Shown piece after piece: positions 29,204-61,400 of a stretch of 64,000 nucleotides of DNA (the first letter of the stretch is position 1; the number at the start of each line of letters is the position of its first letter). Both the position numbers and the translations under genes were made by a program. The notes beneath the pieces are model-generated. The model was not told the DNA's origin and searched no databases. It was given only the letters and a program-made list of their open reading frames with translations. The stretch is from positions 173,557 to 237,556 of the forward strand of contig CALEIS010000135.1 of NCBI GenBank assembly GCA_937877675.1, read 5' to 3'. The DNA comes from an uncultured Clostridia bacterium (GTDB lineage: Bacteria > Bacillota > Clostridia > Oscillospirales > Acutalibacteraceae).

Positions 29204-29293
29204 CGGGTGGTGGAGGATTTGAACCTCCGAACCGTATTAACTACGATTAAAGTCTTAGCAGGACTCCGCATTCAGCCACTCTGCCAACCACCC
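29204..29293 (-). tRNA. tRNA-Ser(GCU)
   Basis: Type II. gggtggt/accaccc. Anticodon arm gagtc-ctgctaa-gactt. Confidence 0.8.
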
Positions 29294-29299
29294 GAATTC

Positions 29300-29386: not shown

Positions 29387-29391
29387 TTGAA

Positions 29392-29465
29392 CGAAGACGA
29401 AGGGGCTTGAACCCTCAACCTCAGCCGTGACAGGGCTGCGCTCTAACCAATTGAGCTACGCCTCC
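29392..29465 (-). tRNA. tRNA-Asp(GUC)
   Basis: Anticodon arm cagcc-ctgtcac-ggctg. Canonical D and T arms. Confidence 0.8.
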
Positions 29466-29471
29466 AATAAC

Positions 29472-29577
29472 AAGGCTCTTTCACTAATGAGATAACCAAC
29501 TTCTCTATATTTTCAACCGAAAACAATTGGACTTGAACCAATGAACTTTAGCTATGCTAATTTGCTGTATGAGCCTT
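29472..29577 (-). ncRNA. ACAGCAAAU-box RNA 2: circularly permuted tRNA mimic (YrlA/Y-RNA-like)
   Basis: Order is: aaggctc-at-ACAGCAAA; hairpin ttagc-ata-gctaa; agttc; T arm attgg-ttcaagt-ccaat; acceptor-like hairpin tgttttc-ggtt-gaaaata; ta; D arm gaga-agttggtta-tctc; ...gagcctt. Confidence 0.6.
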
Positions 29578-29582
29578 TAGAA

Positions 29583-29655
29583 TGGAGCTGACAGGAATCG
29601 AACCTGCTACCCTCTGCGTGCAAAGCAGATGCTCTACCAAATGAGCTACAACCCC
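29583..29655 (-). tRNA. tRNA-Ala(UGC)
   Basis: G3:U70 is present. Anticodon arm tctgc-tttgcac-gcaga. Confidence 0.85.
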
Positions 29656-29807
29656 AAAATTAGGAACAACCCCCATTATTTAGGGGGCTGCACCTTTTTA
29701 TAAACAAACAAAACACGAACCACAATCATCAACACAATGACTATGGTGTTCCCATCGTTTCACAACGAGAGGTAAGGAGAGGGGGACTACCCCCTCTCTA
29801 AGATTAT

Positions 29808-31340: not shown

Positions 31341-31376
31341 AATTATTCTTTCTATGTTTATTATTGATAAAAATGG

Positions 31377-31521
31377 TCAATTCATTCGCCCTTGTCAGGA
31401 TAACTCTTCATATTTGAACAAGTCACTTTTTCTCCACGTTTTATAACCCAAATATAATGTGATTAGATTTGCTGTATGTGACTTTTATTAGGAATTACCC
31501 TAACAAGGATGAATGAATTAA
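31377..31521 (-). ncRNA. ACAGCAAAU-box RNA 3: long 27-bp stem enclosing a 7-bp helix, box and Pro-like anticodon hairpin
   Basis: Outer arms 31377-31403 and 31495-31521. Four of the five non-identical columns are G:U pairs only in the minus-strand RNA. Inner element 31420-31484: aagtcac-at-ACAGCAAATCTAA..ttata-tttgggt-tataa..gtgactt. It lies in the 5' leader of the Ro-like gene. Confidence 0.55.
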
Positions 31522-31522
31522 C

Positions 31523-31660
31523 AAGACCCCATTATTACATTTTTACTGCGCTCTACCAACTGAGCTACTCCCATCATTGCAACAGGAGGCAGGACTCGAA
31601 CCTGCGACATCAGGCTTACAAGGCATATGTTATAATTGATTGATTTGCTGTGTGGGTCTT
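31523..31660 (-). ncRNA. ACAGCAAAU-box RNA 4: circularly permuted tRNA mimic (YrlA/Y-RNA-like)
   Basis: Order is: aagaccc-ac-ACAGCAAATCAA..; hairpin tatgc-cttgtaa-gcctg; atgtc; T arm gcagg-ttcgagt-cctgc; acceptor-like hairpin ctcctgt-tgcaatg-atgggag; ta; D arm gctc-agttggta-gagc; ...gggtctt. Confidence 0.6.
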
Positions 31661-31666
31661 TAAGAA

Positions 31667-31749
31667 TGGGAGCGGTTGGACTCGAACCAACGAAGACCGA
31701 AGTCAGGAGATTTACAGTCTCCCCCCTTTGCCGCTCGGGACACACTCCC
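31667..31749 (-). tRNA. tRNA-Tyr(GUA)
   Basis: Type II. Anticodon arm ggaga-ctgtaaa-tctcc. Confidence 0.8.
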
Positions 31750-31993
31750 AAGTTTGTAACTATCCCTCACCACAGGGAGAACCGTTTCATAAGTTCTTTA
31801 TCCTAGTTACTGAAGATTTAGATTACATCGTACATAGAAGTTTGACGTGGATGTAATCATCCCAATGAGTATGTTCCTTACTTGCCCCCTCATCGGTTAC
31901 TGGGGCGACTGCTCTTTATACATTATCAGGGGAAAGCAGAAAATCCTTTACTGATAAGGGATGAGTTGGTGGTGTCCTACTCATCACAGGAGA

Positions 31994-32065
31994 CAAGGCA
32001 TAGGGGAATTGAACCCCTGTTTAGGGAATGAAAATCCCTTGTCCTAACCACTAGACGAATGCCTC
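31994..32065 (-). tRNA. tRNA-Glu(UUC)
   Basis: gaggcat-tc-gtct-agtggtta-ggac. Anticodon arm aggga-ttttcat-tccct. 4-nt variable loop. Confidence 0.8.
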
Positions 32066-32141
32066 ATGTGTTTTTAACATCGCTGTCAATCTTCATTAGA
32101 GGGTTTTTATTTCCTCTTCACCTTTGGCAGGTGACAAGAAC

Positions 32142-32170
32142 ATTATACATCAGTTCTTTTCTTTTGTCAA
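32142..32170 (-). promoter_or_regulatory. TTGACA-N17-TATAAT promoter cassette
   Basis: attata at 32142-47 and tgtcaa at 32165-70. Confidence 0.7.
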
Positions 32171-32209
32171 GCACTTTTTGAAAGTTTTTTGAACTTTTTT
32201 CTTGAAAAA

Positions 32210-32281
32210 CACTCCATGCGGGATTTGAACCCACCTTCACGATTTTAGAGACCGTTGTCCTAACCACTAGACGAATGGAGC
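32210..32281 (-). tRNA. amber suppressor tRNA (anticodon CUA)
   Basis: gctccat-tc-gtct-agtggtta-ggac-a-acggt-CTCTAAA-atcgt-gaag-gtggg-ttcaaat-cccgc-atggagt-g. Canonical 7-nt loop with U33 and CUA at positions 34-36 (plus-strand tag at 32246-48). Confidence 0.8.
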
Positions 32282-32288
32282 ATGAAAG

Positions 32289-32362
32289 TAGCGGGGATAG
32301 GACTCGAACCTATGACTCCACGAATATGAATCGTGTGTTCTAACCAACTGAACTACCCAGCC
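32289..32362 (-). tRNA. tRNA-Met or Ile2 (CAU)
   Basis: Anticodon arm cacga-ttcatat-tcgtg. One U:C mismatch in the acceptor stem. Confidence 0.7.
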
Positions 32363-32509
32363 ATTTTGATACCGATAACGTGTTTCTCATTACACCATAC
32401 CCACGACCGTTTAGTACGTACTCTAAGTCTTGACAGGCACAGGGAATCTCACCCCAAACATCACCGATACTAGCAGAAATTTTGCGCTAAGGATTTCTGC
32501 AAACCTTAA

Positions 32510-32581
32510 TCAGGGAGGCGAGACTCGAACTCGCAACCACTTGAACCCAAATCAAGCACTCTACCATTGAGCTACACCCTG
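32510..32581 (-). tRNA. tRNA-Pro(UGG)
   Basis: C1:G72. Anticodon arm cttga-tttgggt-tcaag. Confidence 0.75.
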
Positions 32582-33023
32582 AACTGAGGTTCTCACTACC
32601 ACTCGGAGAACACCTAAGTCTGTACACAACCTAGGTACATTATGCTTCATTACTCATAATGAAACGCTTTTGAGCATGTGTGACTCTTGCACAGGTAGCA
32701 CGTTGTCTACCTCGTTTTATAAGACGATGCACATCTTCGTCTCCGTAGATACACATTTATTATCTTCGCACCTGTATCTCATTATCTAAGCCTGATAATG
32801 CCAATCATGAACTTTTGATTGCTATCGTACACCCTATTCAGGTGAGGACTTGGTGCAGCATCTCATGTTTAACTTCCATGAGAAGAATGATAGTTTTACT
32901 ACTGCTATACTATCCAAACAGGGAAGCTCAGGTATTGCCTACCAAGGTTACTTCTTACTGCGAACCTCATAAACAGTCTACTTAGTATGATGAGTGCTTA
33001 TCTCTCATCTTTCATAAGTGGAG

Positions 33024-33095
33024 TAGCCCCTGACAGACTCGAACTGCCGACCAATTCGGTGTAAACGAACCGCTCTACCACTGAGCTAAAGGGCC
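33024..33095 (-). tRNA. tRNA-Val(UAC)
   Basis: Anticodon arm gttcg-tttacac-cgaat. Confidence 0.8.
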
Positions 33096-33128
33096 GTATG
33101 TTGTAGTATTTATCCTCGCAACAAGTAT

Positions 33129-33157
33129 ATTATATCATAGTTCTTTTTACTTGGCAA
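33129..33157 (-). promoter_or_regulatory. TTGCCA-N17-TATAAT promoter cassette
   Basis: attata at 33129-34 and tggcaa at 33152-57. Confidence 0.65.
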
Positions 33158-33189
33158 GATTTTTTTCGTATATTTGTTTAGTTTTTTAC

Positions 33190-33261
33190 AAGACACCTTC
33201 AATCTAACCCTAGAATGACAATACTTTAGTCGGTGTAAATTTGATTTGCTGTATGTGCCTT
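33190..33261 (-). ncRNA. ACAGCAAAU-box RNA 5 (72 nt, 7-bp closing helix)
   Basis: aaggcac-at-ACAGCAAATCAAA....gtgtctt. It starts 5 nt after tRNA-Ile. The interior fold is unresolved. Confidence 0.45.
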
Positions 33262-33266
33262 TAGAA

Positions 33267-33340
<74 letters not shown>

Positions 33341-33347
33341 TTTGAAA

Positions 33348-33421
33348 TGCCACACCTAGGACTTGAACCTAGAACCTCATCATTAAGAGTGATTTGCTCT
33401 AACCATTTGAGCTAGTGAGGC
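33348..33421 (-). tRNA. tRNA-Lys(CUU)
   Basis: Loop ctcttaa. One acceptor mismatch. Confidence 0.7.
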
Positions 33422-33422
33422 T

Positions 33423-33899
33423 TTATAATTTATTGACATCAAGTAATCCATAATGAGCTTCTCTATGACAGTTTGCACATAAAAGAACACATTTGGATAC
33501 TTCATCATTTATAGTATCCATTGAAAGTTGACCAAGTTTTGCTATATTCAATTCAAAACTTTTTTCATCAGGGTTTTTATGATGAAATTCCAATGCTTGA
33601 GGACAACGGTTGTAACCACATGCCATACATTTACCGCCAAACTTGGTATCAATTATTTGTTGTTTGCGTTCTCTTGCACGATTACGATTACTTACAGTTA
33701 TTCGCTTATTTCTTTTTTTACGAAGAAATTCTTTTTCTTCCTCCGTATAATCTTTTACATTGAAAGGTCTATATTTAGTTTTCAATCCATATTTTCCTAA
33801 CCAATGACGAACCGAACTAAAACTTTTATCAAGTTCTTTACAGATGTCACGGATAGAAAGATTCTTGTCAATTAGTTTTTGTAATTCTTCTCGTTCCAT
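33423..33899 (-). CDS. HNH homing endonuclease with N-terminal HTH
   Basis: LEFHHKNPDEKSFELN...LLCANCHREAHYG. Confidence 0.8.
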   Translation of the reverse strand: MEREELQKLIDKNLSIRDICKELDKSFSSVRHWLGKYGLKTKYRPFNVKDYTEEEKEFLRKKRNKRITVSNRNRARERKQQIIDTKFGGKCMACGYNRCPQALEFHHKNPDEKSFELNIAKLGQLSMDTINDEVSKCVLLCANCHREAHYGLLDVNKL

Positions 33900-33952
33900 A
33901 TCTTTATTTAGTTCACTTTACAAATAAAGGAGAGATTTTATTACTGATTTAG

Positions 33953-34026
33953 TGGTAAAGGGTGGAATCGAACCACCGACACCAACATTTTCAGTGTTGT
34001 GCTACTACCGACTGAGCTACTTTACC
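33953..34026 (-). tRNA. tRNA-Phe(GAA)
   Basis: Anticodon arm caaca-ctgaaaa-tgttg. Confidence 0.85.
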
Positions 34027-34031
34027 AATTA

Positions 34032-34105
34032 TAGGACCGCACAGACTTGAACTGTGAACCTAAGGATTATGAGTCCTCCGCTCTAACCGATTGAGCTACA
34101 ATCCC
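34032..34105 (-). tRNA. tRNA-Ile2 (CAU, lysidine-type) or Met
   Basis: Loop ctcataa. The 5' acceptor and D arm (gggattgtagctca) match tRNA-Ile(GAU). Confidence 0.7.
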
Positions 34106-34115
34106 ATATAAAGAA

Positions 34116-34188
34116 TAGGTGCTATGGGATTTGAACCCATGACCAACAGATTAAAAGTCTGCTGCTCTACCGACTGAGCTAAACACCC
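34116..34188 (-). tRNA. tRNA-Lys(UUU)
   Basis: Anticodon arm gcaga-cttttaa-tctgt. Confidence 0.8.
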
Positions 34189-34197
34189 TTTGTGAAA

Positions 34198-34269
34198 CGT
34201 CCTCGGCAGGATTTGAACCTGCGACCCCATGCTTAGAAGGCACGTGCTCTATCCGCTGAGCTACAAGGA
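34198..34269 (-). tRNA. tRNA-Arg(UCU)
   Basis: Anticodon arm cgtgc-cttctaa-gcatg. Confidence 0.8.
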
Positions 34270-34330
34270 CTTATGCGGTAATTGATAACCCACAATTACC
34301 AAAGGGTTGATGATAAATCAAGCAAGAAGA

Positions 34331-34401
34331 CAGGCTGACAAGGACTCGAACCCTGATAAACGGTTTTGGAGACCGTCATTCTACCATTGAATTATCAGCC
34401 T
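34331..34401 (-). tRNA. tRNA-Trp(CCA)
   Basis: Anticodon arm acggt-ctccaaa-accgt. Confidence 0.8.
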
Positions 34402-34634
34402 AGAATAATCATCATAACCTCGTCTCGTATGATGGTATCAATTAGCATCCCCCAAAGTAATAAAATAGATGCTAATTGATTTTTGAGCATGACGGTTTCT
34501 TTTCAAGTGCCACTACCGACAAACACTCCTGAGAGACCTTATTACTGATGGCAGTCATGGTAGGAAATAAAGAAAAACTACCATGAAAGCGGTTTACCAT
34601 CTAATGCAAAGACCTCTAATTGTCATGAAACAAA

Positions 34635-34704
34635 TACGGATAGTGAGAATCGAACTCACAACTAAAGATTGGAAATCTCCTATTTTACCACTAAACTATA
34701 TCCG
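34635..34704 (-). tRNA. tRNA-Gly(UCC)
   Basis: Anticodon arm ggaga-tttccaa-tcttt. Confidence 0.75.
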
Positions 34705-34712
34705 CATGAGAG

Positions 34713-34785
34713 TACACGAAGTAAGACTTGAACTCACAACCCCTTCGTCCGTAGCGAAGTGCTCTATCCATTGAGCTATTCGTGC
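34713..34785 (-). tRNA. tRNA-Arg(ACG)
   Basis: Anticodon arm cttcg-ctacgga-cgaag. Confidence 0.8.
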
Positions 34786-34896
34786 ATTTGTAGTGGTATT
34801 ACCCTGCCACTACTCAGGTTAGAAAGGAGGAGCATCACCTCAATGCCCCAATGAACAACAAATATCAGAACACCGTTTTACGTCTGGCAGACAAAG

Positions 34897-34980
34897 TACG
34901 GAGAACAGGACTCGAACCTGCACGAGATTTCTCTCATAACATCCTTAGTGTTACGTGACTACCAATTCCACCATCTCCGC
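34897..34980 (-). tRNA. tRNA-Leu(AAG)
   Basis: Type II. Anticodon arm taaca-ctaagga-tgtta. Confidence 0.7.
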
Positions 34981-35334
34981 ATTAAGGGGTGGTTTCCCAC
35001 CCCAATTATTGATAGAAAGCAAAAATATGAATAACATTCATGACATCAAAACGTAGGCGGCTTGCAATTCTGTCTATCGCTTGCCATTTTACTGTTTGGT
35101 CAAACTGTCATTCGGATACAACCCCTAGCCTCGTGTATCCCATAGGGTTTCACAACCTCCTATAGAGCAAGACAGTTTATAAAAAAACTGACAAAATTAT
35201 GACAAAATGAAAATACAATAGTAAATCCTGACTTATTATCTCCACCGTCAGAATAGCGCAGAACAACCTTTTAGCAGGAGGATGTAACCTATACTTTGAT
35301 TATGAATACCCACCACAACAACCGTATGATAGAA

Positions 35335-35405
35335 AATCCATGAACGGAATCGAACCGTTACCTCCCCCAAGCACTAAGGGGGCTTGCCCATTACACCACA
35401 TGGAT
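35335..35405 (-). tRNA. tRNA-like gene with 9-nt anticodon loop
   Basis: Perfect acceptor atccatg/catggat. T arm aacgg-ttcgatt-ccgtt. The anticodon arm is ccccc-ttagtgctt-ggggg. Confidence 0.35.
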
Positions 35406-35679
35406 ACCTTCGACCTGAGGTTAATTACTCCTCCAGCCTATTTTCATGAAAAATTGTCGGAAGGATTGTTACCTGCAACCCTTCGCTTAGGTAGTGATTC
35501 TCACCCGCAGAGCGTCCCCTGCGAATTACCAGTCAGAGAGAACCGTTGCCTACCTGATAGTTCCTTATTTTCCTAGGTTGGAAAGGAACTAACAACCTAA
35601 CCAAAAGCGAATTATCGTAGTCGCTAAACACACGGCTCTTATTTTTTACTTCCTCAAGTCGTTGGAAATTTTGAGAACA

Positions 35680-35759
35680 AAATGTAGGAAGGACTTGAAC
35701 CTTCACGGGATTTCAACCCCACCCTTTAACGGCGCGTCTACCATTCCACCACTCACATT
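35680..35759 (-). tRNA. degenerate type II tRNA-Leu(UAA)-like gene
   Basis: T arm gaagg-ttcaagt-ccttc. D loop ggaatggtag. 4-bp anticodon stem with loop gttaaag. Imperfect acceptor. Confidence 0.35.
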
Positions 35760-36007
35760 CATTCTCTTATAAAATCAGATGAATAATTTTGTTATAGTTT
35801 ATAATTACACATCCGATTAGAATTGTTCAATTATTATAACGCTGATACATTCAGGAGTCGAACCTGACCATTGGATAGATTGCAGTCTATCGCCCTCCGA
35901 TACGTCCCTCCCAAAGTGGGTACTTTCTTATCGGCATTACCTCATTATGAAGGGGTTTGCGACCCAAGGTATCGGCTACATACATAATGAGTTTGTTATT
36001 GAACGAA

Positions 36008-36079
36008 AGGTTCGGGTCGGATTTGAACCAACGCATGAGAGATTTGCAGTCACTTGCCTTACCACTTGGCTACCGAACC
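36008..36079 (-). tRNA. tRNA-Cys(GCA)
   Basis: ggttcgg/ccgaacc. Loop ctgcaaa, with one stem mismatch. Confidence 0.7.
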
Positions 36080-48336: not shown

Positions 48337-49062
48337 TTACATTCTTTTATCGTTATTCTTCAAGTTTCTAAACTCTACCTTGAATGTTGTTTCAATCAAA
48401 TCCTCTGTTCTAAATCTTCTAGGACTTTGATTTACATTTCCTAATGTCTCAGGGCATTCGTTGAAGAATTGGAAATAATGAGTTCCTTTATAACCCCACT
48501 TCTCTAATTCTTTTAGAATTTTATTAGCCTTTTCCTCATTGGTAATCTCAGGGTGAATTGTAGTTCTTGTCTCAAACGGAACATTATTACTAATCATGTA
48601 TTCAAGTAACTGTTCCATATGCCATCTAAGCATACTGTTACCGTGGAACTTCAAGTATTCATTAGGAAGGTCAGGGTATTTGTAGTCCAAGGCTACATAA
48701 TCTATCAATCCGTCCTCAATCATCTCAATAACCAAGTTAGGATTAGAACCATTAGTATCTACCTTTACCTTGAACCCTTGCTCTTTACACCACTTCGCAC
48801 TGTCAATTAGATAGTCTCTGTGGAGGGTACATTCACCACCACTGAATACTACATAATCAATGAGATTCTTACGAGAGAGAAGATAATCCTTTATCTCTTG
48901 TGGGTTTAACTCAGGAAGTTGCCCTTTCCATAATTGAACATTATAACAATAGCCACATCGGAAATTACATCTGCTGCTAAACAGAACACAAGATGTATAA
49001 CCTCTCATGTCAATCATGGAAAGTTTCTCCACACCACATACTTTACTAAACACATTACTCAT
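48337..49062 (-). CDS. nrdG: anaerobic ribonucleotide reductase activating protein (radical SAM)
   Basis: CNFRCGYCYN (CxxxCxxC) near the N-terminus. Size and context fit NrdG. Confidence 0.75.
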   Translation of the reverse strand: MSNVFSKVCGVEKLSMIDMRGYTSCVLFSSRCNFRCGYCYNVQLWKGQLPELNPQEIKDYLLSRKNLIDYVVFSGGECTLHRDYLIDSAKWCKEQGFKVKVDTNGSNPNLVIEMIEDGLIDYVALDYKYPDLPNEYLKFHGNSMLRWHMEQLLEYMISNNVPFETRTTIHPEITNEEKANKILKELEKWGYKGTHYFQFFNECPETLGNVNQSPRRFRTEDLIETTFKVEFRNLKNNDKRM

Positions 49063-50024
49063 ACTTTTCTCTTTATTAGAATTCTTGTATAAAGTGCTTT
49101 TCTATCGAGAACAGGGCCTCTTGTTCTCAAAACTTTGCCACTTTTTTCTTCGTATTCTGCATTTTCACCACAGATAAATCCGTTCACATAATCACTTTGA
49201 GAAAACCTATTGAAAATTCCTACAATTTCAAATAAATCCTCTCTCTGCCTATCAATGTAAGTAACAGGAACTCCCATCAGACCATCATAATCAACAGGGA
49301 TGTCTTTACTGTTTTTCACATGAATAGCATCCAAGTTATCATACTTAGGATAATCTTTTTCATTATAATGACATACAGGTTCAATTCCTTTATTATCTTG
49401 TGAGATGTCAAAGTTAGTATACCACCTTACACCATCCACTCTGATGTATTTTACACCTTTTTCATCTATTCTACTTGCCTTTTCACTTAAAGGATAATCA
49501 TCAGGAACTCTAAACTCCCTGTCACCACTATGTATTGAGACACCAAGTCTCACCTCATTTCTCTTGAAATATGGAAACACTTCCTTTGTCACCACTCCTT
49601 TATTCGTTCCAAGAGTAATGAACTTCTTACCGTGTTCCATAATCAACTTCAAATGTTGTCTGAATAAAGAGAATGGAGGATTAGTAACAACTATATCACA
49701 TTGCTTCAAAAACTCAATACATTCTTCACTTCTGAAATCTCCATTACCTTTCATTACAGTTAGTTGCATTTCATCTTTATTGATGTCCTCTAATGTACCA
49801 TGAGGATAAGAAGTACAGATAAGACGCTTCAACCCTAACTTATCAAAATTATCAAAGAAGTATTTTCTAAAATTAGAATAGTGGTCGTCACAGTTGCAAT
49901 ATACAGTTTTATCCTTGAAGAAATGAGTATAATACTTCATTTCTTTTTCAATATCTTCATACGAAGTATAAAATTCATCTGCCTTTCTTCTTTTGGCATC
50001 ATTTAATGTATTTCTAGTTCCCAT
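49059..50024 (-). CDS. adenine-specific DNA methyltransferase (EcoRI-methylase-like)
   Basis: ADEFYTSYEDIEKE...VYCNCDD...VVTNPPFSLF. Confidence 0.7.
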   Translation of the reverse strand: MGTRNTLNDAKRRKADEFYTSYEDIEKEMKYYTHFFKDKTVYCNCDDHYSNFRKYFFDNFDKLGLKRLICTSYPHGTLEDINKDEMQLTVMKGNGDFRSEECIEFLKQCDIVVTNPPFSLFRQHLKLIMEHGKKFITLGTNKGVVTKEVFPYFKRNEVRLGVSIHSGDREFRVPDDYPLSEKASRIDEKGVKYIRVDGVRWYTNFDISQDNKGIEPVCHYNEKDYPKYDNLDAIHVKNSKDIPVDYDGLMGVPVTYIDRQREDLFEIVGIFNRFSQSDYVNGFICGENAEYEEKSGKVLRTRGPVLDRKALYTRILIKRKV

Positions 50025-51499: not shown

Positions 51500-52117
51500 T
51501 TAATAATAACTTGTTCCACTTTGAGGTTTACCATCCCACAATGTTGCATACATGTAAGATTTGATTTTGCAACCAGGTCTTCCACTCCAATCAGAAATCT
51601 TTCTTCTAAATGGCTGAGCACCTTCTACAGGTTCAGGAGTAGGAACACATGTGTAATGTCCCCAATGCTTACCATCTTCCTTTCTCTGTGACTTTACCTT
51701 TATCAATGTAACAGAAGTATCTGTCATTTTCAACACTTTGAAGAAATCAATATTGGTCTGCTCATAACCCCAATCAGCTACAAAGTATTGTGGCTCAGCA
51801 GTTTGTGTGGGCTATTCCTTTACCTTATTCTTTGAACCAGCAGGTCTACCTCTTCTCTTAGCAGTAGGCTTATTGAAAGAAGCTCCACCTTGAGTATTCC
51901 CTGTTGTTACATTACTTGGCTCTTCATTGTCAAATCCACTTACTGAGAATTCTTCTACAACCAAACCATACTTCTGCTCATAGAAATTTGCCACCTTGTT
52001 ATACAAAGTGTTCTCATCAAGTTGTGACTTGCTCTTTACTACAAGATTTTTATTAGGGAGTACACTTTCCGTCAATACTCCACTAACTTTTCTAATTTCA
52101 ACTTTATACTCGAACAT
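51500..52117 (-). CDS. MFEYNV-family protein (paralogue 4) with TAG before the C-terminal domain
   Basis: MFEYKVEIRKVSGVLTESVLPNKNLVVKSK...SKNKVKE*PTQTAEPQYF... TAG at 51812-14. Track ORFs 51812.. and 51500.. share a frame with no other stop between them. Confidence 0.6.
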
Positions 52118-52128
52118 GTTGAAATTAT

Positions 52129-53160
52129 TTATTCAACTGTACTGAGTAATCTGTTGTGAAATCTTAGATAATCTCCTACTGTAATGCCATTATCAAAACA
52201 TAAAGTATTGAGCATGTTTGTGATTCTCTCTCCCTTGGTGTATCTCACCCCCTTTGGAATCTCTTTATCTGTCAAGAAATCCTCACACTTCTTCACCCAT
52301 CTGTTAATCTCATCGTAACCAATAGGCTGCTCACTCTTCTTATAGATACCATATAACTCCGCAAGTTCAGTATACTTCTCTAAGTATTTCTCTTTCAAAG
52401 CCTTCCATCTCTTGTTGATAATGGCATAAGGAATACCTGCAACATAGAATACATAACCCTCTACTTCACAACCCTTTACATCAATCTTTCCATTGATAAG
52501 AGACTTGGAACTCTCAGCCAATTTGTCAAGTAGATTAGGAATATCTGACAATTCACAATTCTTGGGAATGTCAACTACTGTATCAATGTCCTCAGTAGGA
52601 ATCATCTCATCAATGAGGTAACACTTAAAACCTTTGTCAGCAGTAATTGTAAAGTACGTCTGAAGTTCTTTCAAAACGAAGTCAACATCCTCATCTTCAA
52701 CATTACCCTTGAACTTACGAATAACAACAGCACCCTTTTTGCCCATACGAACCTTATGATACTTGGTAGCTACTATGGTAACAGTATTGTCAGCATCATA
52801 GTATTCTTGAGGAGCATAAATCAACTCACCCTCAAACTCAAAAGCACCATACTTACGCTTCATCTTCAAAAGTTCCATGAGCATGTGCGTCTGTAAGTGT
52901 TCTACAAGAGCTTGGTGACTAGGTTCTCTGCTAATGTTATCATACTCACCTCTTGCAGTTTTGATAAGGATTCTGTTATCATCTCCTACCTTGACTGCAA
53001 AACATTGACCATCAATCTTTTCAGTAACTCCACCTCCAATACCAAGGGTAAGAAGGTGAAGTTCCTTACGGTTATCAATAAGTCGTGGTTTGAATTGAGT
53101 TCTCAAACGCTTACGACTTACCTTATTCATCTTTATTGTAGAAATTTTATTCATTTGCAA
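52129..53160 (-). CDS. ATP-dependent RNA/DNA ligase-like nucleotidyltransferase
   Basis: Motif I KxDG (GVTEKIDGQCF). Confidence 0.5.
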   Translation of the reverse strand: MQMNKISTIKMNKVSRKRLRTQFKPRLIDNRKELHLLTLGIGGGVTEKIDGQCFAVKVGDDNRILIKTARGEYDNISREPSHQALVEHLQTHMLMELLKMKRKYGAFEFEGELIYAPQEYYDADNTVTIVATKYHKVRMGKKGAVVIRKFKGNVEDEDVDFVLKELQTYFTITADKGFKCYLIDEMIPTEDIDTVVDIPKNCELSDIPNLLDKLAESSKSLINGKIDVKGCEVEGYVFYVAGIPYAIINKRWKALKEKYLEKYTELAELYGIYKKSEQPIGYDEINRWVKKCEDFLTDKEIPKGVRYTKGERITNMLNTLCFDNGITVGDYLRFHNRLLSTVE

Positions 53161-54008
53161 TCATCTTCTAATTGTTCATTCCACCACTCTTTGATTTCAG
53201 AAGGATAATCAAAACCTTCACGTTCCATTTCATCAATGTATTCCTTAACAATGAAGTCAATCCTATCGAAGAGGGGATGCTCAGGGTCACTAATCAAAGA
53301 CCATACATCCATTACATTTCTGAAACTGTGTCTTACATCAATTACATCAAGAAGAATGTACAAGATTTCTTCAGGGTCATTTGTAACGAGTTTCTTTTCA
53401 ATAGTCTTGACAGTCTTATTGATACGTCCATTCTTACCCTCATAAGAACGAGTCATTCGGAACAACCCATGTCTCTGGTCAAAGTACAGACGGTCAAAGT
53501 AAAGAACTGTGCCATCCTCATTTGTATGAACAACAGTATCCTTGTACTTGGAGATAGCACGAATAAGACCATTACGTGTAGCAGATTTCCACGGAGTATC
53601 ACCATCTGTCATCATTCCCCATTCTGCCATACCTACATTTTCCACAGGCATCAAATCAACCTGTACATAACGGTCAGTACGCTTGCCATCCTTATCAAAG
53701 ATAGGGAAAGGTATGCTGTGAATGTCTAAACCTTTAGAATAATTGTATTCAGGAAGTGTTACATACAAATCGTTCAAACGCTTGGTAATCCCTTCCTTAT
53801 CCAATCCTAAACGTCTCATCGCTACATTTACATCAAATGCAATGTCAATGTCTCCACAACTTTCACGAACTAAGAATGAACCACAAGGTACATACTCTCC
53901 AATTACCAAACCAAGGGCTTGATAGATATGTTCTCTCAGAACTTCATAAGTAGTTTCCATTTCCTCCTTATGAATTCGTCCTACTGTCTTTAGTGCTTTG
54001 CCTCCCAT
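53151..54008 (-). CDS. Pol-beta-superfamily nucleotidyltransferase
   Basis: GSF...CGDIDIAFD signature. Confidence 0.5.
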   Translation of the reverse strand: MGGKALKTVGRIHKEEMETTYEVLREHIYQALGLVIGEYVPCGSFLVRESCGDIDIAFDVNVAMRRLGLDKEGITKRLNDLYVTLPEYNYSKGLDIHSIPFPIFDKDGKRTDRYVQVDLMPVENVGMAEWGMMTDGDTPWKSATRNGLIRAISKYKDTVVHTNEDGTVLYFDRLYFDQRHGLFRMTRSYEGKNGRINKTVKTIEKKLVTNDPEEILYILLDVIDVRHSFRNVMDVWSLISDPEHPLFDRIDFIVKEYIDEMEREGFDYPSEIKEWWNEQLEDDCK

Positions 54009-54298
54009 AAAATTGTATCGTAATCTGATTCGTTAATTTCGTTAGTCTCCATGTGTCGCCATAATCCTACCACAGTGAGTCTGTGTTCGTCAAGCTCAAA
54101 CTTACGAGGATGTCCTGCAAATTCTCCCAAAGTCTGTACTATCTTTTTGAATTTCTGTTTACCAAATATCTTATACATCTGTCCTTGTGTCCAATCGACA
54201 GTTTCAGTCTTGTAAAGCTCTTGGTAACGGAAGTAATCTCCTTCCAACACAATTACCCATTCGTTAGGTATTCCGTATAATACTCCTGTAAATTTCAT
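53990..54298 (-). CDS. hypothetical protein
   Basis: 102-aa ORF. TATAAT lies 9 nt upstream of the ATG. Confidence 0.5.
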   Translation of the reverse strand: MKFTGVLYGIPNEWVIVLEGDYFRYQELYKTETVDWTQGQMYKIFGKQKFKKIVQTLGEFAGHPRKFELDEHRLTVVGLWRHMETNEINESDYDTILWEAKH

Positions 54299-54307
54299 GG
54301 CACAGTT

Positions 54308-54336
54308 ATTATACTACAACTCCTAATCTCTGTCAA
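54308..54336 (-). promoter_or_regulatory. TTGACA-N17-TATAAT promoter cassette
   Basis: attata at 54308-13 and tgtcaa at 54331-36. Confidence 0.7.
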
Positions 54337-54350
54337 TACTTTTTTGAAGA

Positions 54351-54377
54351 AAAATAAAACCCTCCATCTCAGGAGGG
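54351..54377 (-). terminator. rho-independent terminator after the nrdD tail ORF
   Basis: ccctcc-atctca-ggaggg, with a T-run on the minus strand. Confidence 0.65.
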
Positions 54378-54411
54378 TCTATTATTACATTCTGTTATCG
54401 AGGTTTAGTAA

Positions 54412-54588
54412 TCAGCAACCACAAGAGCATTGACAACCCTTGACCTTAAAGAACTCACGCTCAGCGAATTCTGACTTCTTACCAACATTGAATGAATTAA
54501 CATTACGATAGTAACCCATTACACGAGAGAATACCTCACAACGCTGTCTCTCACCCTCATACTTACTTAAAAATTCTTTCTTGCCCAT
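54412..54588 (-). CDS. stand-alone glycyl-radical domain of NrdD (58 aa)
   Basis: MGKKEFLSKYEGERQRCEVFSRVMGYYRNVNSFNVGKKSEFAEREFFKVKGCQCSCGC contains the class III RNR C-terminal RV.GY..(N).N.GK..E motif. It is below the track's cut-off. Confidence 0.6.
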   Translation of the reverse strand: MGKKEFLSKYEGERQRCEVFSRVMGYYRNVNSFNVGKKSEFAEREFFKVKGCQCSCGC

Positions 54589-54686
54589 AATTGTATAACT
54601 ATTTACATGCTACTTTTTGCTATTTCTCTTTTATTATTTCTGAATTTCTGTTGAATTTCCTTATTCATTGTCGTAGCATCAATGAC

Positions 54687-55466
54687 TTATGAAAAATCAA
54701 CAATTTCTAATCTTTTTTTGGCATACTCAGTTTGAGCTTCTGATAGTTCAATGCCTATGTAACTCATACCCAAGTTCTTACATGCCATTCCTGTTGTCCC
54801 TGTTCCACTAAAAGGGTCAAGTACAACCATTCCCTCTTTACCGTATAATGACAATAACTTCTCACACAACTCTGTGGAATATGTGCATTTGTTCAAGTCA
54901 TTAGTTCCATCGTTATTCTTTGCTTCAATGAAGTTGTAATAACACTCATAAAACTTCTGTCCATGATGACTAACACTCTTCACAGCCTTGTTTGTAGTGA
55001 ATGTTTTTATCTCATCCTTTCTACAGAGAACAAACACATGCTCCCAAATTCTTGTCAACTGAGTGGCTGATACATTATTAGGAATAGCACTTCTTTTCTT
55101 CCAACAAATGTCATCTGCCATTGTGAAGCATGTATTCCTAAAGATGTCTGCTAATGTCAAATACATACATTCTGTGTTCATTCCACCATAGTTCATGTTC
55201 CATAAGATTACTCCATTAGGTTTCAATACACGCTCAAACTCTTTGAAGTATTGAAGCATCCACTCAGAGTATTCTTCATTCGTCATTGTATCAAGTCTGA
55301 TGTCATAACGAACAGTAGGATGTCCCTTTGTGTTCTGCTTTCCTAATGTTGCTCCACCTTTTTTATTCGTATTATAAGGAGGAGAGGAAAGAATGATGTC
55401 GATAGAATGGGAGGGGTGGTTTTTCAACCACCCCAATGAATCACAGTTATGAAGTTGAAGATTCAT
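54687..55466 (-). CDS. DNA methyltransferase (beta class, SPPY motif; N4-cytosine or N6-adenine)
   Basis: LSSPPYN...DPFSGTGTTG. It sits between the two parts of nrdD. Confidence 0.8.
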   Translation of the reverse strand: MNLQLHNCDSLGWLKNHPSHSIDIILSSPPYNTNKKGGATLGKQNTKGHPTVRYDIRLDTMTNEEYSEWMLQYFKEFERVLKPNGVILWNMNYGGMNTECMYLTLADIFRNTCFTMADDICWKKRSAIPNNVSATQLTRIWEHVFVLCRKDEIKTFTTNKAVKSVSHHGQKFYECYYNFIEAKNNDGTNDLNKCTYSTELCEKLLSLYGKEGMVVLDPFSGTGTTGMACKNLGMSYIGIELSEAQTEYAKKRLEIVDFS

Positions 55467-57406
55467 TATGCCTTATTGGGGTCAATTTCATCAGCATGTT
55501 TTGCCATCAACTCCTTGTCACACAACGGACAGAACTCATGGATACCAGGGATTCTGCCATGCTTAGGACATGTGGAGAATGTTGCTGTGAAAGAAACATA
55601 AGGAAGTCTATAGTTGGTGAGAACTTTACGAAGAAGAACTTTACATTCCTCTGCTGTTACATCCTCATCATTATAAATGTGGAGAACCGTACCACCTGTA
55701 TATGCCTTCTGTAAGTCATCCTGTAAATCCAATACTGCAAATACATCATCGGAGAAATCTACAGGAAGTTGTGAAGAGTTGGTGTAATAAGGAGCATCAG
55801 GGAAACCTGCCTGAATAATGTCAGGATAACGCTTAATGTCTTCACGAGCAAATCGTGTAGTAGTACCCTCAGCAGGGGTTGCTTCCAAATTCCACAATGC
55901 CTTACCTGTTTCCTGATAACCTACCATTCGCTCATTCATCCACTTGAGAATATCCAATGCCATCTTCTGTCCACGTGGGTCAGTAATGTTATACTCATCA
56001 TTGGTGAAATTACGTACCATCTCATTCATACCATTTACACCAATCGTAGAGAAGAATGTATCCAAGGTACGAACATATCTGCGAGTGTAAGGATAAAGAC
56101 CACGAAGATTCATCTCCTCTACAAATGCACGCTTCTTATCAAGAGTAGAACGTGCCATGTCCATCAACTGTCCAAGACGCTTATAGAGAGCCTTCAAATC
56201 TCCCTTGTAAAGATAACCAAGACGAGCCATGTTAATAGTTACTACACCAATAGAACCTGTCTGTGCATCAGAACCAAAGAGACCACCACCACGCTTTCTA
56301 AGTGCCTTACGGTCAAGCTGCAAGCGACAGCACATACTTCTTACGTCATCAGTAGAGTAAGCACTTTCATCACGGATAGTGAGCTTACCGTTTTCATCAC
56401 GGAGATACTGAGAGCCAATGAAGTTCTGGAAATAGGTAGAACCATAGAGAGCAGCATTCTCAAAGAGGAATTCATACTCAGGATTATCCCATTCAAAGTC
56501 CTCAGTAATGTTTACGGTAGGAATAGGGAATGTGAAAGGCTGTCCTACGCAATCACCCTCAGAAAGAACCTCATAGTACATCTTAGAGATAATCATCATC
56601 TCTTTCTTGAAGTGTTCATAAGTGAGGGAATAGAGAATAGTTTCCTCATCACTTTCAAAGTCATTGAGACGCTTACGTGCTTCTGCGAACAATCTATTCC
56701 AACCCTCATTATTAGTATCAGTTTCGCTCTCACAGAACTCACGATAATTACGAACAAAATAAGGTTCTTCACCACGCTGAGGAGCAAGATACTTCATATG
56801 ATTAGGAACAGTCATGTCAATAGTAACATTGCTGAAAGGAGACTGACCCCATCTGCTAGGAACATTGAGATTATAGACAAATGAAAGTAGAGCTTTCTTT
56901 ACATCACGTTCATCAATACCCTCTACTGTCATATCAAAAAACACATAAGGTGCAAGGAGAGTATCGAATGAGGAGAAAGCCTGAGCACCTGCCCACTCAC
57001 TCTGTAGAATACCTACGAAATTAGCCATCTGACCTAGTGCTTCACGGAAATGCTTGGGTGGCTTAGAAGATACACGGCTTACAACACCATTGAAACCTTC
57101 CTGAAGCAAACGCTGCAAATCATGTCCACAACAATAAGCTCCAAGAATGTCAAGGTCATGAATGTGATAATCGCCATTACGGTGAGCATCGCCTTCCTTC
57201 TTAGTGTAAACCTTATCAAGCCAATAGTTAGCAATAGCTTTACCTGCGAGATTATTCACAAGCCCTGCTGCACTATAACCTGTATTAGCATTAGCATTGA
57301 TACGCCAATCACTCTTGTTAATATACTCTTCAACTGATGCTACGCAATCCATCTTCGTAGCACGAGCAGAGTCCGCTTTAATTACATCTTGTAGTCCTTC
57401 AATCAT
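55466..57406 (-). CDS. nrdD: anaerobic ribonucleoside-triphosphate reductase, large fragment lacking the glycyl-radical tail
   Basis: 646 aa with class III RNR hallmarks. It ends just after the Zn-ribbon cysteines (CPKHG...CPLCD) and has no RV.GY motif. Confidence 0.75.
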   Translation of the reverse strand: MIEGLQDVIKADSARATKMDCVASVEEYINKSDWRINANANTGYSAAGLVNNLAGKAIANYWLDKVYTKKEGDAHRNGDYHIHDLDILGAYCCGHDLQRLLQEGFNGVVSRVSSKPPKHFREALGQMANFVGILQSEWAGAQAFSSFDTLLAPYVFFDMTVEGIDERDVKKALLSFVYNLNVPSRWGQSPFSNVTIDMTVPNHMKYLAPQRGEEPYFVRNYREFCESETDTNNEGWNRLFAEARKRLNDFESDEETILYSLTYEHFKKEMMIISKMYYEVLSEGDCVGQPFTFPIPTVNITEDFEWDNPEYEFLFENAALYGSTYFQNFIGSQYLRDENGKLTIRDESAYSTDDVRSMCCRLQLDRKALRKRGGGLFGSDAQTGSIGVVTINMARLGYLYKGDLKALYKRLGQLMDMARSTLDKKRAFVEEMNLRGLYPYTRRYVRTLDTFFSTIGVNGMNEMVRNFTNDEYNITDPRGQKMALDILKWMNERMVGYQETGKALWNLEATPAEGTTTRFAREDIKRYPDIIQAGFPDAPYYTNSSQLPVDFSDDVFAVLDLQDDLQKAYTGGTVLHIYNDEDVTAEECKVLLRKVLTNYRLPYVSFTATFSTCPKHGRIPGIHEFCPLCDKELMAKHADEIDPNKA

Positions 57407-57533
57407 AACTGTGTAATGTGTAATCTTTACTTACTGCCTTTCATTATACGGCAGTTCTATTCATTTGCATGATTTTCAGATAAATTTCACTCATAATCTT
57501 TTGAGTGTTTGAGGATGATAAATAATACACAGA

Positions 57534-57980
57534 ATGTTTAAGTGTTTTAAATTTATTGATGACATGATGAAGCAGCTCAATGAAGCTGATGAAATGCCTA
57601 TGGATGATGATACTGAAATGGGTGGTGATGATGCTGCTATGGAAGACCCTGCTGCTGAGGGAGATATGGATATAGAAGGCGGTGAAGCCCCTGTTGAAGG
57701 TGCGGAAAGTAACCCTGCTTCAAATCCTGAATAGATTGCAGAAGTAGATAACGGTACGTTTATTTCTGACCTTGGTAATGCAGAAGTAGCAAAAACACTT
57801 CTCAAAGCAGTAACAAAAGCATTGCCAAATGAAATTATACCTCCTCAATTTGAAACTGTCACAACTGATAACGCTAATGCAGTAATTCAATACGCAAAAA
57901 ATCTTCTTCAACTTGATGGTACTGATGAAAGTAATCCATATGAAAATATGACTTACGATGATGCTCTCAAAAATGCTTGA
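57534..57980 (+). CDS. acidic protein read through one TAG
   Basis: ORF 57534..57734 ends at TAG 57732-34. The frame continues for 81 sense codons (IAEVDNGTFISDLGNAEVAKTLLKAV...) to TGA 57978-80. The antisense track ORFs here look spurious. Confidence 0.55.
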
Positions 57981-58023
57981 GAAAAAGCTTGACAATTTTA
58001 GATTCATGAGATAGAATTGGGCT

Positions 58024-58485
58024 ATGAGAAATCATAGCCCTTTTTATTGTCTAATACCTGGCTCATTTCGTCCTCCTCATCAAGGACATTATGAGATGAT
58101 AAGTCATTACCAATCTCTTGCTAGTGAGGCAGGAGGTAAGGTGATTGTAATGGTGTCTAAACCATCTAAGAAGAATGAGAGATTGACAGGGAGTGGACAG
58201 GTAATTACTCCACAGTTTGCTAAGGAGAAGTTACATGAAATGTTTGGAGATAGTATTGAAGTAAGAATCTCTGAGCAAAGCCCTGTACGTGATTGTTATG
58301 AATTTGGTTCTGAGATTACGGAGGGAACTGTAATGTTTTGCTGTGCGAATAAGGATAAGGATATTGAGAGATTTGATATGATAAAGGATTACTATAAAAA
58401 GAAAAACCCCCACATTAAAGTGGAGGTTAGTCCTTTTGAGATTAAGACACAGATAAGTTCTAGTGAGATTAGAAGTAATATGTAA
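58024..58485 (+). CDS. cytidylyltransferase-superfamily (HxGH) nucleotidyltransferase
   Basis: GSFRPPHQGHYEMI near the N-terminus. 153 aa. Confidence 0.5.
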   Translation: MRNHSPFYCLIPGSFRPPHQGHYEMISHYQSLASEAGGKVIVMVSKPSKKNERLTGSGQVITPQFAKEKLHEMFGDSIEVRISEQSPVRDCYEFGSEITEGTVMFCCANKDKDIERFDMIKDYYKKKNPHIKVEVSPFEIKTQISSSEIRSNM

Positions 58486-61400
58486 TATTATCAGCAGTAT
58501 GTCGCCCTTCTGCACCCTACCATTCGATAAGGTCATATGATTTATTTTTATCAGTGAAAGTAAACCAATACATGATATAATCACCTGCACTAAAAGCCTA
58601 ATTCAACTACAATTGACCTGTACTCATAGGTATTGAACATTTCTTAGCATCCTGTGGTATGTATTTTACTACTTGTGTCTAATTACCTTTTTCATCCTAT
58701 TCAGTTACAATGGTCATTTTTACTAAAATGTAATTGATAGCCAAATTTGTCATATCTTTATAATGAATGTTACATTTTACACTGAAATATTTGTAAGGTG
58801 CTACATTCTTTACTTGGTATGAATAATCCATAGCTTGATTCGACTTCAATTTTACGTCTAATTGTGGAATGATTTGGTCACATGATGTATCATTTACATC
58901 CCAACCACATTTATATATTGAACTTGAAACATTATCAGTATTAGCCGAATGATAATCAATAGTCATCGTATATTTGCCAGGTTTTCTATATGGTATACTG
59001 ACACTAAAGTTTGAACGAATGTTGGATTGATATACTTCTTTACCTTGCTAATCATACAATTTACAAATTGCATCATTAGTATCTAAAATTTCAGATGGTG
59101 ATAAGATACCTTTCACGTCTATTCTCATATAGTCATAAGCACTCTAATAATTGGAGGAAACTTCTATATTTTTTTCTTTTAAGAAAGATTTAACATCTGT
59201 CAATTTTGTTGCAGTCCAAGTATCATCAAGGGTCTAAACACATGGCTAATAACGGAAGATTTTAGCATTTGTGTCAATGTCAGTATAACGACAACCTTTG
59301 AAAAGAATCTTTAGTTCATTATCATCTACTGAATAATAATTGGCATCCTTACCATAACTATAATATACATCATTAGTGTTATTTGGAGAAGTCCATTTAT
59401 ATGCTTTCTTTATATTATAAACACTTGTGTTTATCAATTCATAACCGTTTCTTTGAATATTATCTTTATCGAGATACACTTTAGACGATGAAATGTTTTC
59501 ATTTGTGGTGTCAATATTCAAAAAGTCTTCATATAAAGTAAGAGGTGTTCTAGTGATACAATATCTTCTAGGATATTGTTCTTTTCTTTTATATATTGAA
59601 TCTTTAGAATCGTATCCTACTGCACTAATATCAGAAGATTTCAAATCAATTATTCCATTCTAATCTGCTTCATATGCATAGTTTGTTTCTAATCCAAACT
59701 AACTAATAGGTAAATCAAATGAACCATCAATGTTTGGCGTAAATGATTTAGTTCCACATAAAATTTCCAAACCTCTTTCTGAGTTATCTTCGGAAAGATT
59801 TATTAGCCCTTTCATATATGGATAAAATCTATTACCTATCTTTTTCAAATATGATACAAAATTACTAATGGTAAGTCTAGGTACAGGATAATTGTATGTA
59901 TAATAATTGTTCTAAACTCCATCAATAACTTCTTTATACATTCTAATATCTTGTCTCTGACCAACATACTTATTCATTGGAATTATATGTCCAATCTCAA
60001 CCTTATAAATTCCATTAGGAATGCTTTCACAAGAAATTTTCTAACTAAAGTATCCATCGGTCGTTGGTTTATAATCATCAAAAGGTATCTTTTTATCGAC
60101 AATATAACTTATAACCTTTTCAGGATTTTTAGTAGACATTTGTGAAACACGATATAATACATCACCTCGCTCAGGTTCATTTGTTATCCTCCAAGAAGTT
60201 TCCATCTTTTTATTGTTTATTGAAACCATTGGCTAACTCACATTACCTACACTTGTGTATAATAATGTGACAGAAGGAATTTCTGCAATTTCAGAACCCT
60301 AATACACGTTGCTCTAATACATATCATCAGAACTTTTACATATTTCCTTTACTTCAACACTAAATGTATATTCTCCATTTGGTATTTCCCTAAATGGAAT
60401 TTTAGTCTAATAATATGTTTCTGAAATTTTATCTTCTTTGCCATTCTAATCAGTTATAATAACCTCTTCCGTTTTAGGATTTTCAAAGTTAAGGTCATAT
60501 GTTATCAATAATGGCTATAATTCTCTGAAATCATCAGCATGTTTTATATCAATACCACTGTTTGAATCATCATATTTGCTTGTTGTCAAATGCAATTTTG
60601 CATATTGCAAATGGTTAGGACAAGTGTCTTGTGGCAAGCAATATCTGAATATAATAACTTTGTCATCATTTTTACACTATGTTATTGGTGAAGATTGTGG
60701 CACTTCTAATTTATCAGGTTGAATACTTTCACTTGTCTTTTTATATACATACTGAGATACTCCTGATACACCATTGATACCTGTAACCTACATGTATATT
60801 TTGTAAATACCTGTCTCCAAGTTTTCCTTTATACCATTTACTACATTGTAAATCTTAAAACTTCTTTGATTCTAATTTCTCTAAATGTTTGAAACCTCAA
60901 CATCATCAGGACTACAAACTTTGTAACATTTTGGTATCCAATTACTTTCAATGTTTACATTTTTCTAATCAAATGAACAACTAAAACATGTATATTTTCT
61001 ATTAGGTTCATTCTCCTTTTCTTCAACCTATTCAACAATATCCACATTCAAAGCAATAATAGGTACATCTGACCAATTCCATATTATACTTTCTTCATTT
61101 ACAAACTCATCAGCATAATCCTAAGAAATATAATCGTCACTTATATAGACAATCTAATCCTATCCATAAATCTTTTTCCAATTCTTTACAGCGACTACAA
61201 TCAAACTATCATCTCTTTTATCATTGAGAACAAAACTACTTCTATTCTAATTTGAAACATTTGCACTCTTCAAATTGTACTAAATGCCTAAATCGTAAAA
61301 TGATTTATAAACGAGTTTATAAGGGATATATATTGTGACTCTATCATCGAAAGAACTATAAAAAGTGATTGCAATTTTTGGTAAAACTCTAACATCATCT

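Follow-up and report, generated by a model that had tools for sequence, protein, structure and literature searches.

A gut jumbo phage probably encodes an ancestral two-subunit anaerobic ribonucleotide reductase with its glycyl-radical domain in trans

Introduction

Class III ribonucleotide reductases (RNRs) are presented in reviews and textbooks as enzymes with a single catalytic chain, which carries the radical glycine at its own C-terminus. The stretch of DNA analysed here, 64,000 nucleotides (nt) in length and called the window below, comes from a gut jumbo phage. The nrdD gene on its minus strand departs from that description; the 646-residue open reading frame (ORF) ends before any glycyl-radical motif. 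How, then, could the anaerobic RNR of this phage work? The initial annotation of the window proposed that the motif lies on a separate ORF of 58 residues, that a complete methyltransferase gene sits between the two parts, and, by implication, that the inserted gene had split an intact nrdD. The positions that it gave for all three minus-strand ORFs are correct in every particular. Judged from sequence, the phage probably encodes an ancestral two-subunit class III (anaerobic) RNR, the radical domain of which acts in trans.

The NrdD core lacks the glycyl-radical motif

The large ORF (55466..57406, minus strand) was assigned as the NrdD core, the large subunit, by its Pfam and NCBIfam matches and by alignment with the Thermotoga maritima NrdD structure 4COI. 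It covers positions 2-530 of the 562 positions of Pfam NRDD (PF13597) with an E-value of 1e-147, and positions 93-660 of the 684 positions of NCBIfam NF006126, where it scores 865 bits against a cutoff of 548. The core has a catalytic barrel, RSMCCRLQLD as its finger loop, and a Zn ribbon (CPKH...CPLC) followed by a 17-residue tail, DKELMAKHADEIDPNKA; the C-terminus of the ORF reads ...CPKHGRIPGIHEFCPLCDKELMAKHADEIDPNKA-TAA. RSMCCRLQLD, NLEATPAEG, YYTNSSQLP and YTGGTV all line up with invariant columns of 68 homologues, and the core has its invariants in common with bacterial homologues. The Zn ribbon, CPKH-x10-CPLC, matches the CxxH...CxxC of intact homologues and the CPVC of 4COI, with which the core can be aligned as far as residue 612 (CPVCGKAK). 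In its CC finger loop and its EATPAE glutamate, the core presumably resembles the thioredoxin-type NrdD2 in chemistry.

We looked for an intact radical motif in the large ORF, and found RVxGY nowhere in its 646 residues; an ATP-cone was likewise not found in the core. As had been claimed, the ORF ends after the Zn ribbon, with the stop codon located 17 residues past it. This ending is shared by relatives. RVxGY is missing from all 120 of the nearest large-subunit homologues, which have 66-99% identity and lie on contigs as long as 375 kb; each of the 120 ends with the tail CPLCDKE[IL]MxKHAxE[IV]DxN.

The motif is encoded by a separate small gene

The 58-residue ORF (54412..54588, minus strand) has the sequence MGKKEFLSKYEGERQRCEVFSRVMGYYRNVNSFNVGKKSEFAEREFFKVKGCQCSCGC-TGA. 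It reads MGKKEFLSKYEGERQRCEVFSRVMGYYRNVNSFNVGKKSEF..., which places Gly25 (codon 54514-54516), within the motif SRVMGYY, as the candidate radical site. From the N- to the C-terminus, the small subunit consists of one helix, the segment ERQRCEVF, the hairpin SRVMG(25)YYRN, the segment NSFNVGKKSEF and a Cys-rich tail, GCQCSCGC (coded at 54412-54435). Its match to Pfam NRDD spans positions 530-562 of 562 with an E-value of 9e-8, which is over the gathering score. The two ORFs together tile the 562-position profile, the large one from 2 to 530 and the small one from 530 to 562, as expected if nrdD is encoded in two pieces with the radical motif on the second. Alignment of both pieces with NrdD gave the same picture: the core reaches residue 612 of 4COI, the small-protein family corresponds to residues 617-645 (MRIVGYLVPVSAFNK...), and the two do not overlap.

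All Pfam and NCBIfam matches of the small protein are to NrdD C-terminal tails, and no match to the Gly_radical domain of the pyruvate formate-lyase (PFL) type was obtained. The small protein has no NCBIfam model of its own, and what it matches there is limited to the ~35 C-terminal positions of models for full-length NrdD. Stand-alone homologues fall into 16 clusters of 51-76 residues and share 14 invariant columns, RVMGY included. The ratio of nonsynonymous to synonymous substitution rates (dN/dS) of the small ORF is 0.05 between the window and its relative L094, and 0.17 between the window and relative L009, which shows that the ORF is under purifying selection. Owing to these dN/dS values and to the conserved stand-alone homologues, the small ORF is not a chance reading frame.

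At least two tail cysteines, of the CGCS or CxC types, are present in ~16% of the family members examined. By analogy, one may speculate that the Cys tail of the small subunit is reminiscent of the Cys tails that act as redox shuttles in class I and II RNRs.

Split NrdD across bacteria

We searched 1.84 billion representative proteins with a small-protein profile. There were 3811 matches, 557 of them at E<=1e-10, and the best 150 of the 3811 are all between 48 and 124 residues in length. When these 150 were combined with the 16 clusters, 161 of the resulting 166 sequences start with Met, 165 contain the motif, and the median length is 66 residues. The consensus of the family is ERQxCEVW[T/S]RVMGY[H/Y]RPVxSFNxGKKxEFxER.

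Two scans of bacterial and archaeal assemblies, with one genome per species (GTDB), gave >600 and 172 matches, from which 160 loci were kept. In 139 of the 160, an nrdD core without RVxGY is followed by the small ORF and then by nrdG; the remainder comprises eight natural fusions and 13 loci with the small gene alone. Proteobacteria and other phyla, as well as a clade of gut jumbo phages, commonly have the split form. Besides Ralstonia and Cupriavidus, it was found in Geobacter, Thiobacillus, Achromobacter, Janthinobacterium, Castellaniella, Pleomorphomonas, Sutterella, Omnitrophota and others, with Trichlorobacter thiogenes and Acidithiobacillus ferrianus among the named species. A two-piece class III RNR is therefore widespread, and truncated 'NrdD' entries in the databases are not pseudogenes.

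The small gene is often unannotated, or it is named like the large subunit. On the Cupriavidus necator H16 megaplasmid pHG1 (L186, NC_005241.1 253274-255647), RefSeq lists coding sequences of 676 and 66 residues followed by nrdG; the 676-residue one is called 'ribonucleoside triphosphate reductase' and the 66-residue one 'nrdD'. Ralstonia solanacearum (L185, CP085044.1) has coding sequences of 683 and 58 residues, nrdG and fnr in RefSeq. In both records the tiny coding sequence bears the same name as the large one, and the small ORF is left without any annotation in many records of Ralstonia megaplasmids. A description of split NrdD was not found in the literature searched, a scope outside which a 1999 article about pHG1 nrdD/nrdG falls. 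Database curators may well have met the short entries, and any novelty is claimed with respect to the literature searched only.

These data bear on whether the phage nrdD could be decaying, the large ORF being a truncated pseudogene and the small one its leftover. The lack of the essential radical motif in the large ORF is what one would expect of such decay. However, both parts are conserved in phages (66-99% identity) and across bacterial phyla, the catalytic invariants are intact, NrdG is kept, the operon order is preserved in 139 loci, and the dN/dS values given above speak of constraint. We regard decay as the least probable of all the readings weighed here.

Two genes rather than one restored polypeptide

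Could one polypeptide be restored from the two parts by read-through, frameshift, ribosomal bypass, an intron or protein trans-splicing? There are some grounds for asking. TAG is recoded in this phage, as has been reported for some gut phages: when TAG is read as sense, the coverage of the window by long ORFs rises from 0.63 to 0.77, and one of the 29 tRNA genes in the window (array 20891-36079) is of the amber-suppressor type, with the anticodon CTA (32209-32282, minus strand). The small radical ORF of L009 even contains one in-frame TAG, which is read as Q in the source protein. In addition, nrdD of phage T4 carries a group I intron, and relatives of the window have NrdD cores of 800-1121 residues owing to inteins (PF14890, PF14528); in L001 (5001-7874), the intein is inserted exactly between the two finger-loop cysteines (SMC|CRLQLD).

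The recoding leaves the split unaffected, however, because the relevant stop codons are TAA and TGA: nrdD and the methyltransferase gene end with TAA, and the small ORF ends with TGA. The two parts are separated by an 880-nt stretch that contains a complete and conserved methyltransferase ORF; stops flank this stretch, and it is not in frame. When 53000-58500 was scanned against Rfam at E<=1, three matches came up, all at chance level, with neither an intron nor another RNA family in the region; no split-intein motifs were found at either end, and the nrdD copy of the window is intein-free. On account of the missing Rfam match and the stop-bounded, out-of-frame sequence, we rejected a single chain interrupted by an intron or intein.

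The bacterial loci point in the same direction. Relative to the core, the small ORF lies in frame 0, 1 or 2 at 20, 22 and 33 loci, respectively, and the stop codon of the core that precedes it is TGA in 54, TAA in 14 and TAG in seven cases. The distance between the core stop and the small-ORF start varies from -19 to +219 nt, and ATGA overlaps occur ten times. With the small ORF in any frame, after any of the three stops and often in an ATGA overlap, the arrangement is that of a two-gene operon, not of recoding; the mixture of frames and stop codons also led us to reject selenocysteine insertion or read-through at an in-frame TGA. Altogether, restoration of one polypeptide is very improbable.

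The methyltransferase is younger than the split

In the window, the two halves of nrdD are separated by a gene (54687..55466, minus strand) for a 259-residue DNA methyltransferase of the N6_N4_Mtase family, with the motif SPPY. The gene is complete, as had been claimed, since its product matches positions 1-221 of the 221 positions of Pfam PF01555 with an E-value of 4e-35. Its ATG overlaps the nrdD stop codon (TAATG). The nearest known relative is a methyltransferase of one Fusobacterium phage, with 52% identity. We rejected the possibility that it is a duplicate of another phage methyltransferase, as the likeness is limited to the AdoMet-binding motif.

The initial annotation implied that this gene was a mobile element that split an intact phage nrdD, the fragments of which reassemble. 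A phage precedent exists. In Aeromonas phage Aeh1, nrdA is split by the homing-endonuclease gene mobE and presumably works as two polypeptides; like the Aeh1 case, the window has a phage RNR gene interrupted by another gene. The position of the methyltransferase, precisely between the parts and starting at the nrdD stop, also fits such an origin. Contigs of jumbo-phage relatives were retrieved through the large NrdD protein. In L001-L003 (67% NrdD identity), the core ends with TAATAA, followed after 12 nt by a 55-residue ORF and then by nrdG. L094 and L095 (82%) have a 116-nt spacer and a 59-residue ORF, whereas L096 and L097 (69%) have a 119-nt spacer and a 55-residue ORF. None of these relatives has a methyltransferase at the site; it is confined to the window and its closest relatives, L009-L012.

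The relatives without the methyltransferase thus already have a stop codon and a separate small ORF, so the methyltransferase is not the cause of the split. By DNA alignment, the insertion point is exactly the nrdD stop codon, and the gene is a later insertion into a pre-existing spacer of ~117 nt in the lineage of the window and L009. The implied cause is contradicted on further grounds: in bacteria the two-gene layout is the rule without any inserted gene, the conserved core tail and the conserved N-terminus of the small protein are older than the insertion, and Pfam detected no homing-endonuclease or other mobility domain in the methyltransferase. We consider it highly unlikely that an insertion split an intact phage nrdD. 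In Aeh1 the split was produced by the inserted mobile gene, whereas in the window it is older than the insertion. That the methyltransferase is tolerated between the halves indicates that they need neither adjacency nor translational coupling, and the tolerance of an unrelated gene at this place is what the phage case adds to the bacterial ones.

Between the methyltransferase gene and the small ORF there is a 98-nt spacer (54589..54686, minus strand), recognized by alignment with methyltransferase-free relatives. Its last ~45 nt before the small-ORF ATG are common to relatives with and without the methyltransferase. The spacer motif GTAAATA-N4-TAC-N2-4-TTATG (54593-54607) is kept in relatives whose synonymous sites are saturated, and may serve in translation initiation or as an internal promoter. 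It occurs once in the window, and 20 of 100 shuffled sequences had at least one match, so that it is not significant by itself; being unique, it was rejected as a repeated promoter.

A megablast search against INPHARED gave no near-identical phage genome. At the protein level, the best-matching phage records are intact NrdDs of ~40% identity, with CPKCG-x4-6-RITGY in one chain.

Fused forms and the origin of the split

One NrdD subclass, the NF006126 type with CEVW[T/S]RVMGY, exists in three states. In the first, fused form, as in Desulfovibrio, only 8-17 residues lie between the last Zn cysteine and RVMGY, and the ribbon motif is CPxC[G/A]. The second form, found for instance in Riflebacteria, is also fused, and has 27-52 residues in this place, with CPxCDEE followed by a helix. 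The third is the split form.

As a natural long-linker fused homologue, P0318 was modelled with AlphaFold2 (AF2), which gave a predicted local distance difference test (pLDDT) score of 81. The model contains one helix (residues 654-671), equivalent to the tail of the split core, one coil (672-690) and one β-hairpin (691-702) with Gly at its tip. Its best matches in the PDB are class III RNRs (8P23, 9DCA, 4U3E and 1HK8). The break in the window (...EIDPNKA, stop, and MGKKEF...) aligns with the coil of the model. The fission is ancestral, and its site is the variable linker that joins Zn ribbon and radical hairpin in this subclass. Expansion of the linker, followed by gene fission at the coil, is the likely path; occasional re-fusion, or a fused state that was kept, would account for the fused members.

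How the two subunits would work

In the two-subunit enzyme proposed here, the 646-residue core would contribute barrel, Zn ribbon and the finger loop for the thiyl radical; the glycyl-radical hairpin, with Gly25 in RVMGY, would come from the 58-residue protein. The small subunit would dock with its hairpin in the core barrel, and its N-terminal segment would probably pack onto the tail helix at the core C-terminus. NrdG, together with S-adenosylmethionine, would turn Gly25 into a radical; as happens in single-chain NrdD, this radical may then move from Gly25 to the cysteine of the finger loop. The activase is at hand. As noted in the initial annotation, nrdG lies at 48337..49062 (minus strand); its 241-residue product has the Radical_SAM and Fer4_12 domains and the CxxxCxxC motif CNFRCGYC of a radical-SAM activase. 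With the core devoid of the motif, a radical domain acting in trans, which had been suggested before, appears from sequence to be the sole way for the enzyme to work.

Compared to the single-chain NrdD/NrdG systems of T4, E. coli, T. maritima and P. copri, the barrel, the finger-loop cysteines, the Zn ribbon, the RVxGY hairpin and the activase are all alike. What differs is that the radical hairpin of the window is on a separate 58-residue polypeptide, that the split core has an extra C-terminal helix, and that the core of the window has no ATP-cone.

The initial annotation also likened the small protein to GrcA/YfiD. GrcA/YfiD and T4 Y06I are autonomous glycyl-radical cofactors for PFL (PMC8683613). 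Like GrcA as portrayed there, the phage protein is, by sequence, a small stand-alone protein with a radical glycine that would use the activase of its partner and complement, in trans, a large subunit devoid of a working radical domain. The likeness holds for this way of working and fails for family membership: GrcA is homologous to the C-terminus of PFL, whereas the protein described here matches the NrdD tail and not the PFL-type domain. Moreover, GrcA rescues an oxygen-cleaved enzyme that has its own radical domain, whereas the core described here never has one. The small protein would thus be obligatory, not a spare, because its partner core has no radical domain. Orphan copies in other phages and genomes may behave more like GrcA. 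Among glycyl radical enzymes, spare-part proteins are known for formate lyases only, as stated in a 2026 review (PMC13450708).

Another naturally split RNR is the class II enzyme NrdJa/NrdJb of Pseudomonas aeruginosa (PMC9669993, and Crona 2015 cited there). Like that enzyme, the phage RNR has its catalytic chain spread over two genes, with the C-terminal module on the second polypeptide. The RNR class, the cofactor and the break point differ: the C-terminal module of NrdJb is a Zn-finger/Cys tail, and NrdJb is a large folded protein, not a radical peptide of ~60 residues.

Placement of the oxygen-labile radical on a cheap, replaceable peptide might be one benefit of the two-subunit form; the activase might also act more easily on a free peptide. 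The split form offers a system in which to study the docking of the radical domain, the access of the activase to the glycine, and the repair of oxygen damage by replacement of a subunit.

Several observations weigh against the two-subunit reading or its proposed benefits. When modelled alone by AF2, the small protein gave a low-confidence structure (pLDDT 52) in which only the N-terminal helix was formed. A PDB search with the phage small-protein profile returned nothing at E<=1, and the profile of the broader bacterial family has a weak PDB match (E 0.44), though in register. No obvious Shine-Dalgarno sequence precedes the small ORF in the window, nor does one precede nrdD or its neighbours. 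In addition, neutral fission at a floppy linker accounts for the distribution of the split form equally well.

Orphan small genes

The small gene also occurs by itself. In lambda-like temperate phages (with GpA terminase, Phage_portal_2 and integrase), an orphan gene of 51-57 residues is located 5-9 nt after the portal gene (L006-L008, L013, L098-L102 and L104-L106). On these contigs, which are up to 25 kb in length, neither nrdD nor nrdG was found. We rejected the idea that they belong to the same phage family as the window, as the small gene alone is shared. Related orphan copies are present in metagenome-assembled genomes of Clostridia and Acutalibacteraceae. One further orphan (L055, ~5998-6120) has uvrD on one side and rubrerythrin on the other, on a contig assigned by binning to Parabacteroides distasonis; in Magnetospirillum fulvum, another (L077, ~5995-6117) directly precedes class I nrdA/nrdB. 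The small gene is duplicated (7818-8147 and 9180-9524) at one nrdD-nrdG locus of Geobacteraceae (L131).

Two views of the split can be weighed against these genes. According to the first, the split was neutral: the chain broke at a long flexible linker, the halves stay tightly bound, with no exchange of the small subunit and no use of it as a spare. The coexistence of short-linker fused, long-linker fused and split forms in one subclass, the eight fusions among the 160 loci and the location of the break in the coil of the AF2 model all agree with it. The orphans far from any nrdD (in temperate phages, beside rubrerythrin and beside class I nrdAB), as well as the duplicated gene of L131, argue against it and suggest that the peptide is used as an independent module. 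On balance, we think a purely neutral split rather unlikely.

According to the second view, which we put forward only tentatively and hold to be doubtful, the protein of ~60 residues would be a consumable and exchangeable 'radical cartridge': once oxygen or nitric oxide (NO) had destroyed its radical and cleaved it, a fresh subunit and NrdG would re-arm the core. The orphan copies hint at a cartridge of this kind that is portable, with the peptide travelling by itself. As an auxiliary gene of 55 residues, the orphans of temperate phages could, in the course of infection, re-arm the NrdD core of the host or of a co-resident phage. If the cartridge idea is true, split class III RNR would be the first glycyl radical enzyme with built-in spare-part logic; the free peptide would be the real substrate of the activase, and would provide a natural system to study how an activase gains access to a buried glycine.

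Locus organization and neighbouring genes

No terminator-like sites were detected on the minus strand between nrdD and the small ORF. Directly after the small ORF, one clean intrinsic terminator (54357..54380, minus strand) closes the unit formed by nrdD, the methyltransferase gene and the small ORF; a sigma-70 promoter then follows. This promoter (54336-54308, minus strand), a perfect TTGACA-17-TATAAT, belongs to the next gene, an ORF of 102 residues (53990-54298). Both elements were identified from the sequence. The presence of a canonical promoter right behind the terminator suggests a host with canonical sigma-70 promoters.

The small ORF and nrdG are ~5.3 kb apart, with seven ORFs between them, including genes for a metallophosphoesterase and an EcoRI-like methyltransferase. 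DNA methyltransferases without a partner are abundant around nrdD and nrdG, namely the EcoRI-like enzyme (49059-50024) and the N6_N4 enzyme (54687-55466). The nrdD ... nrdG neighbourhood is likewise found in the phage relatives, in which MT-A70 enzymes occur; L094 10748-11947 is a further methyltransferase site. The gene content between nrdD and nrdG differs among close relatives, the window having four additional ORFs (51812-54298) compared to L094.

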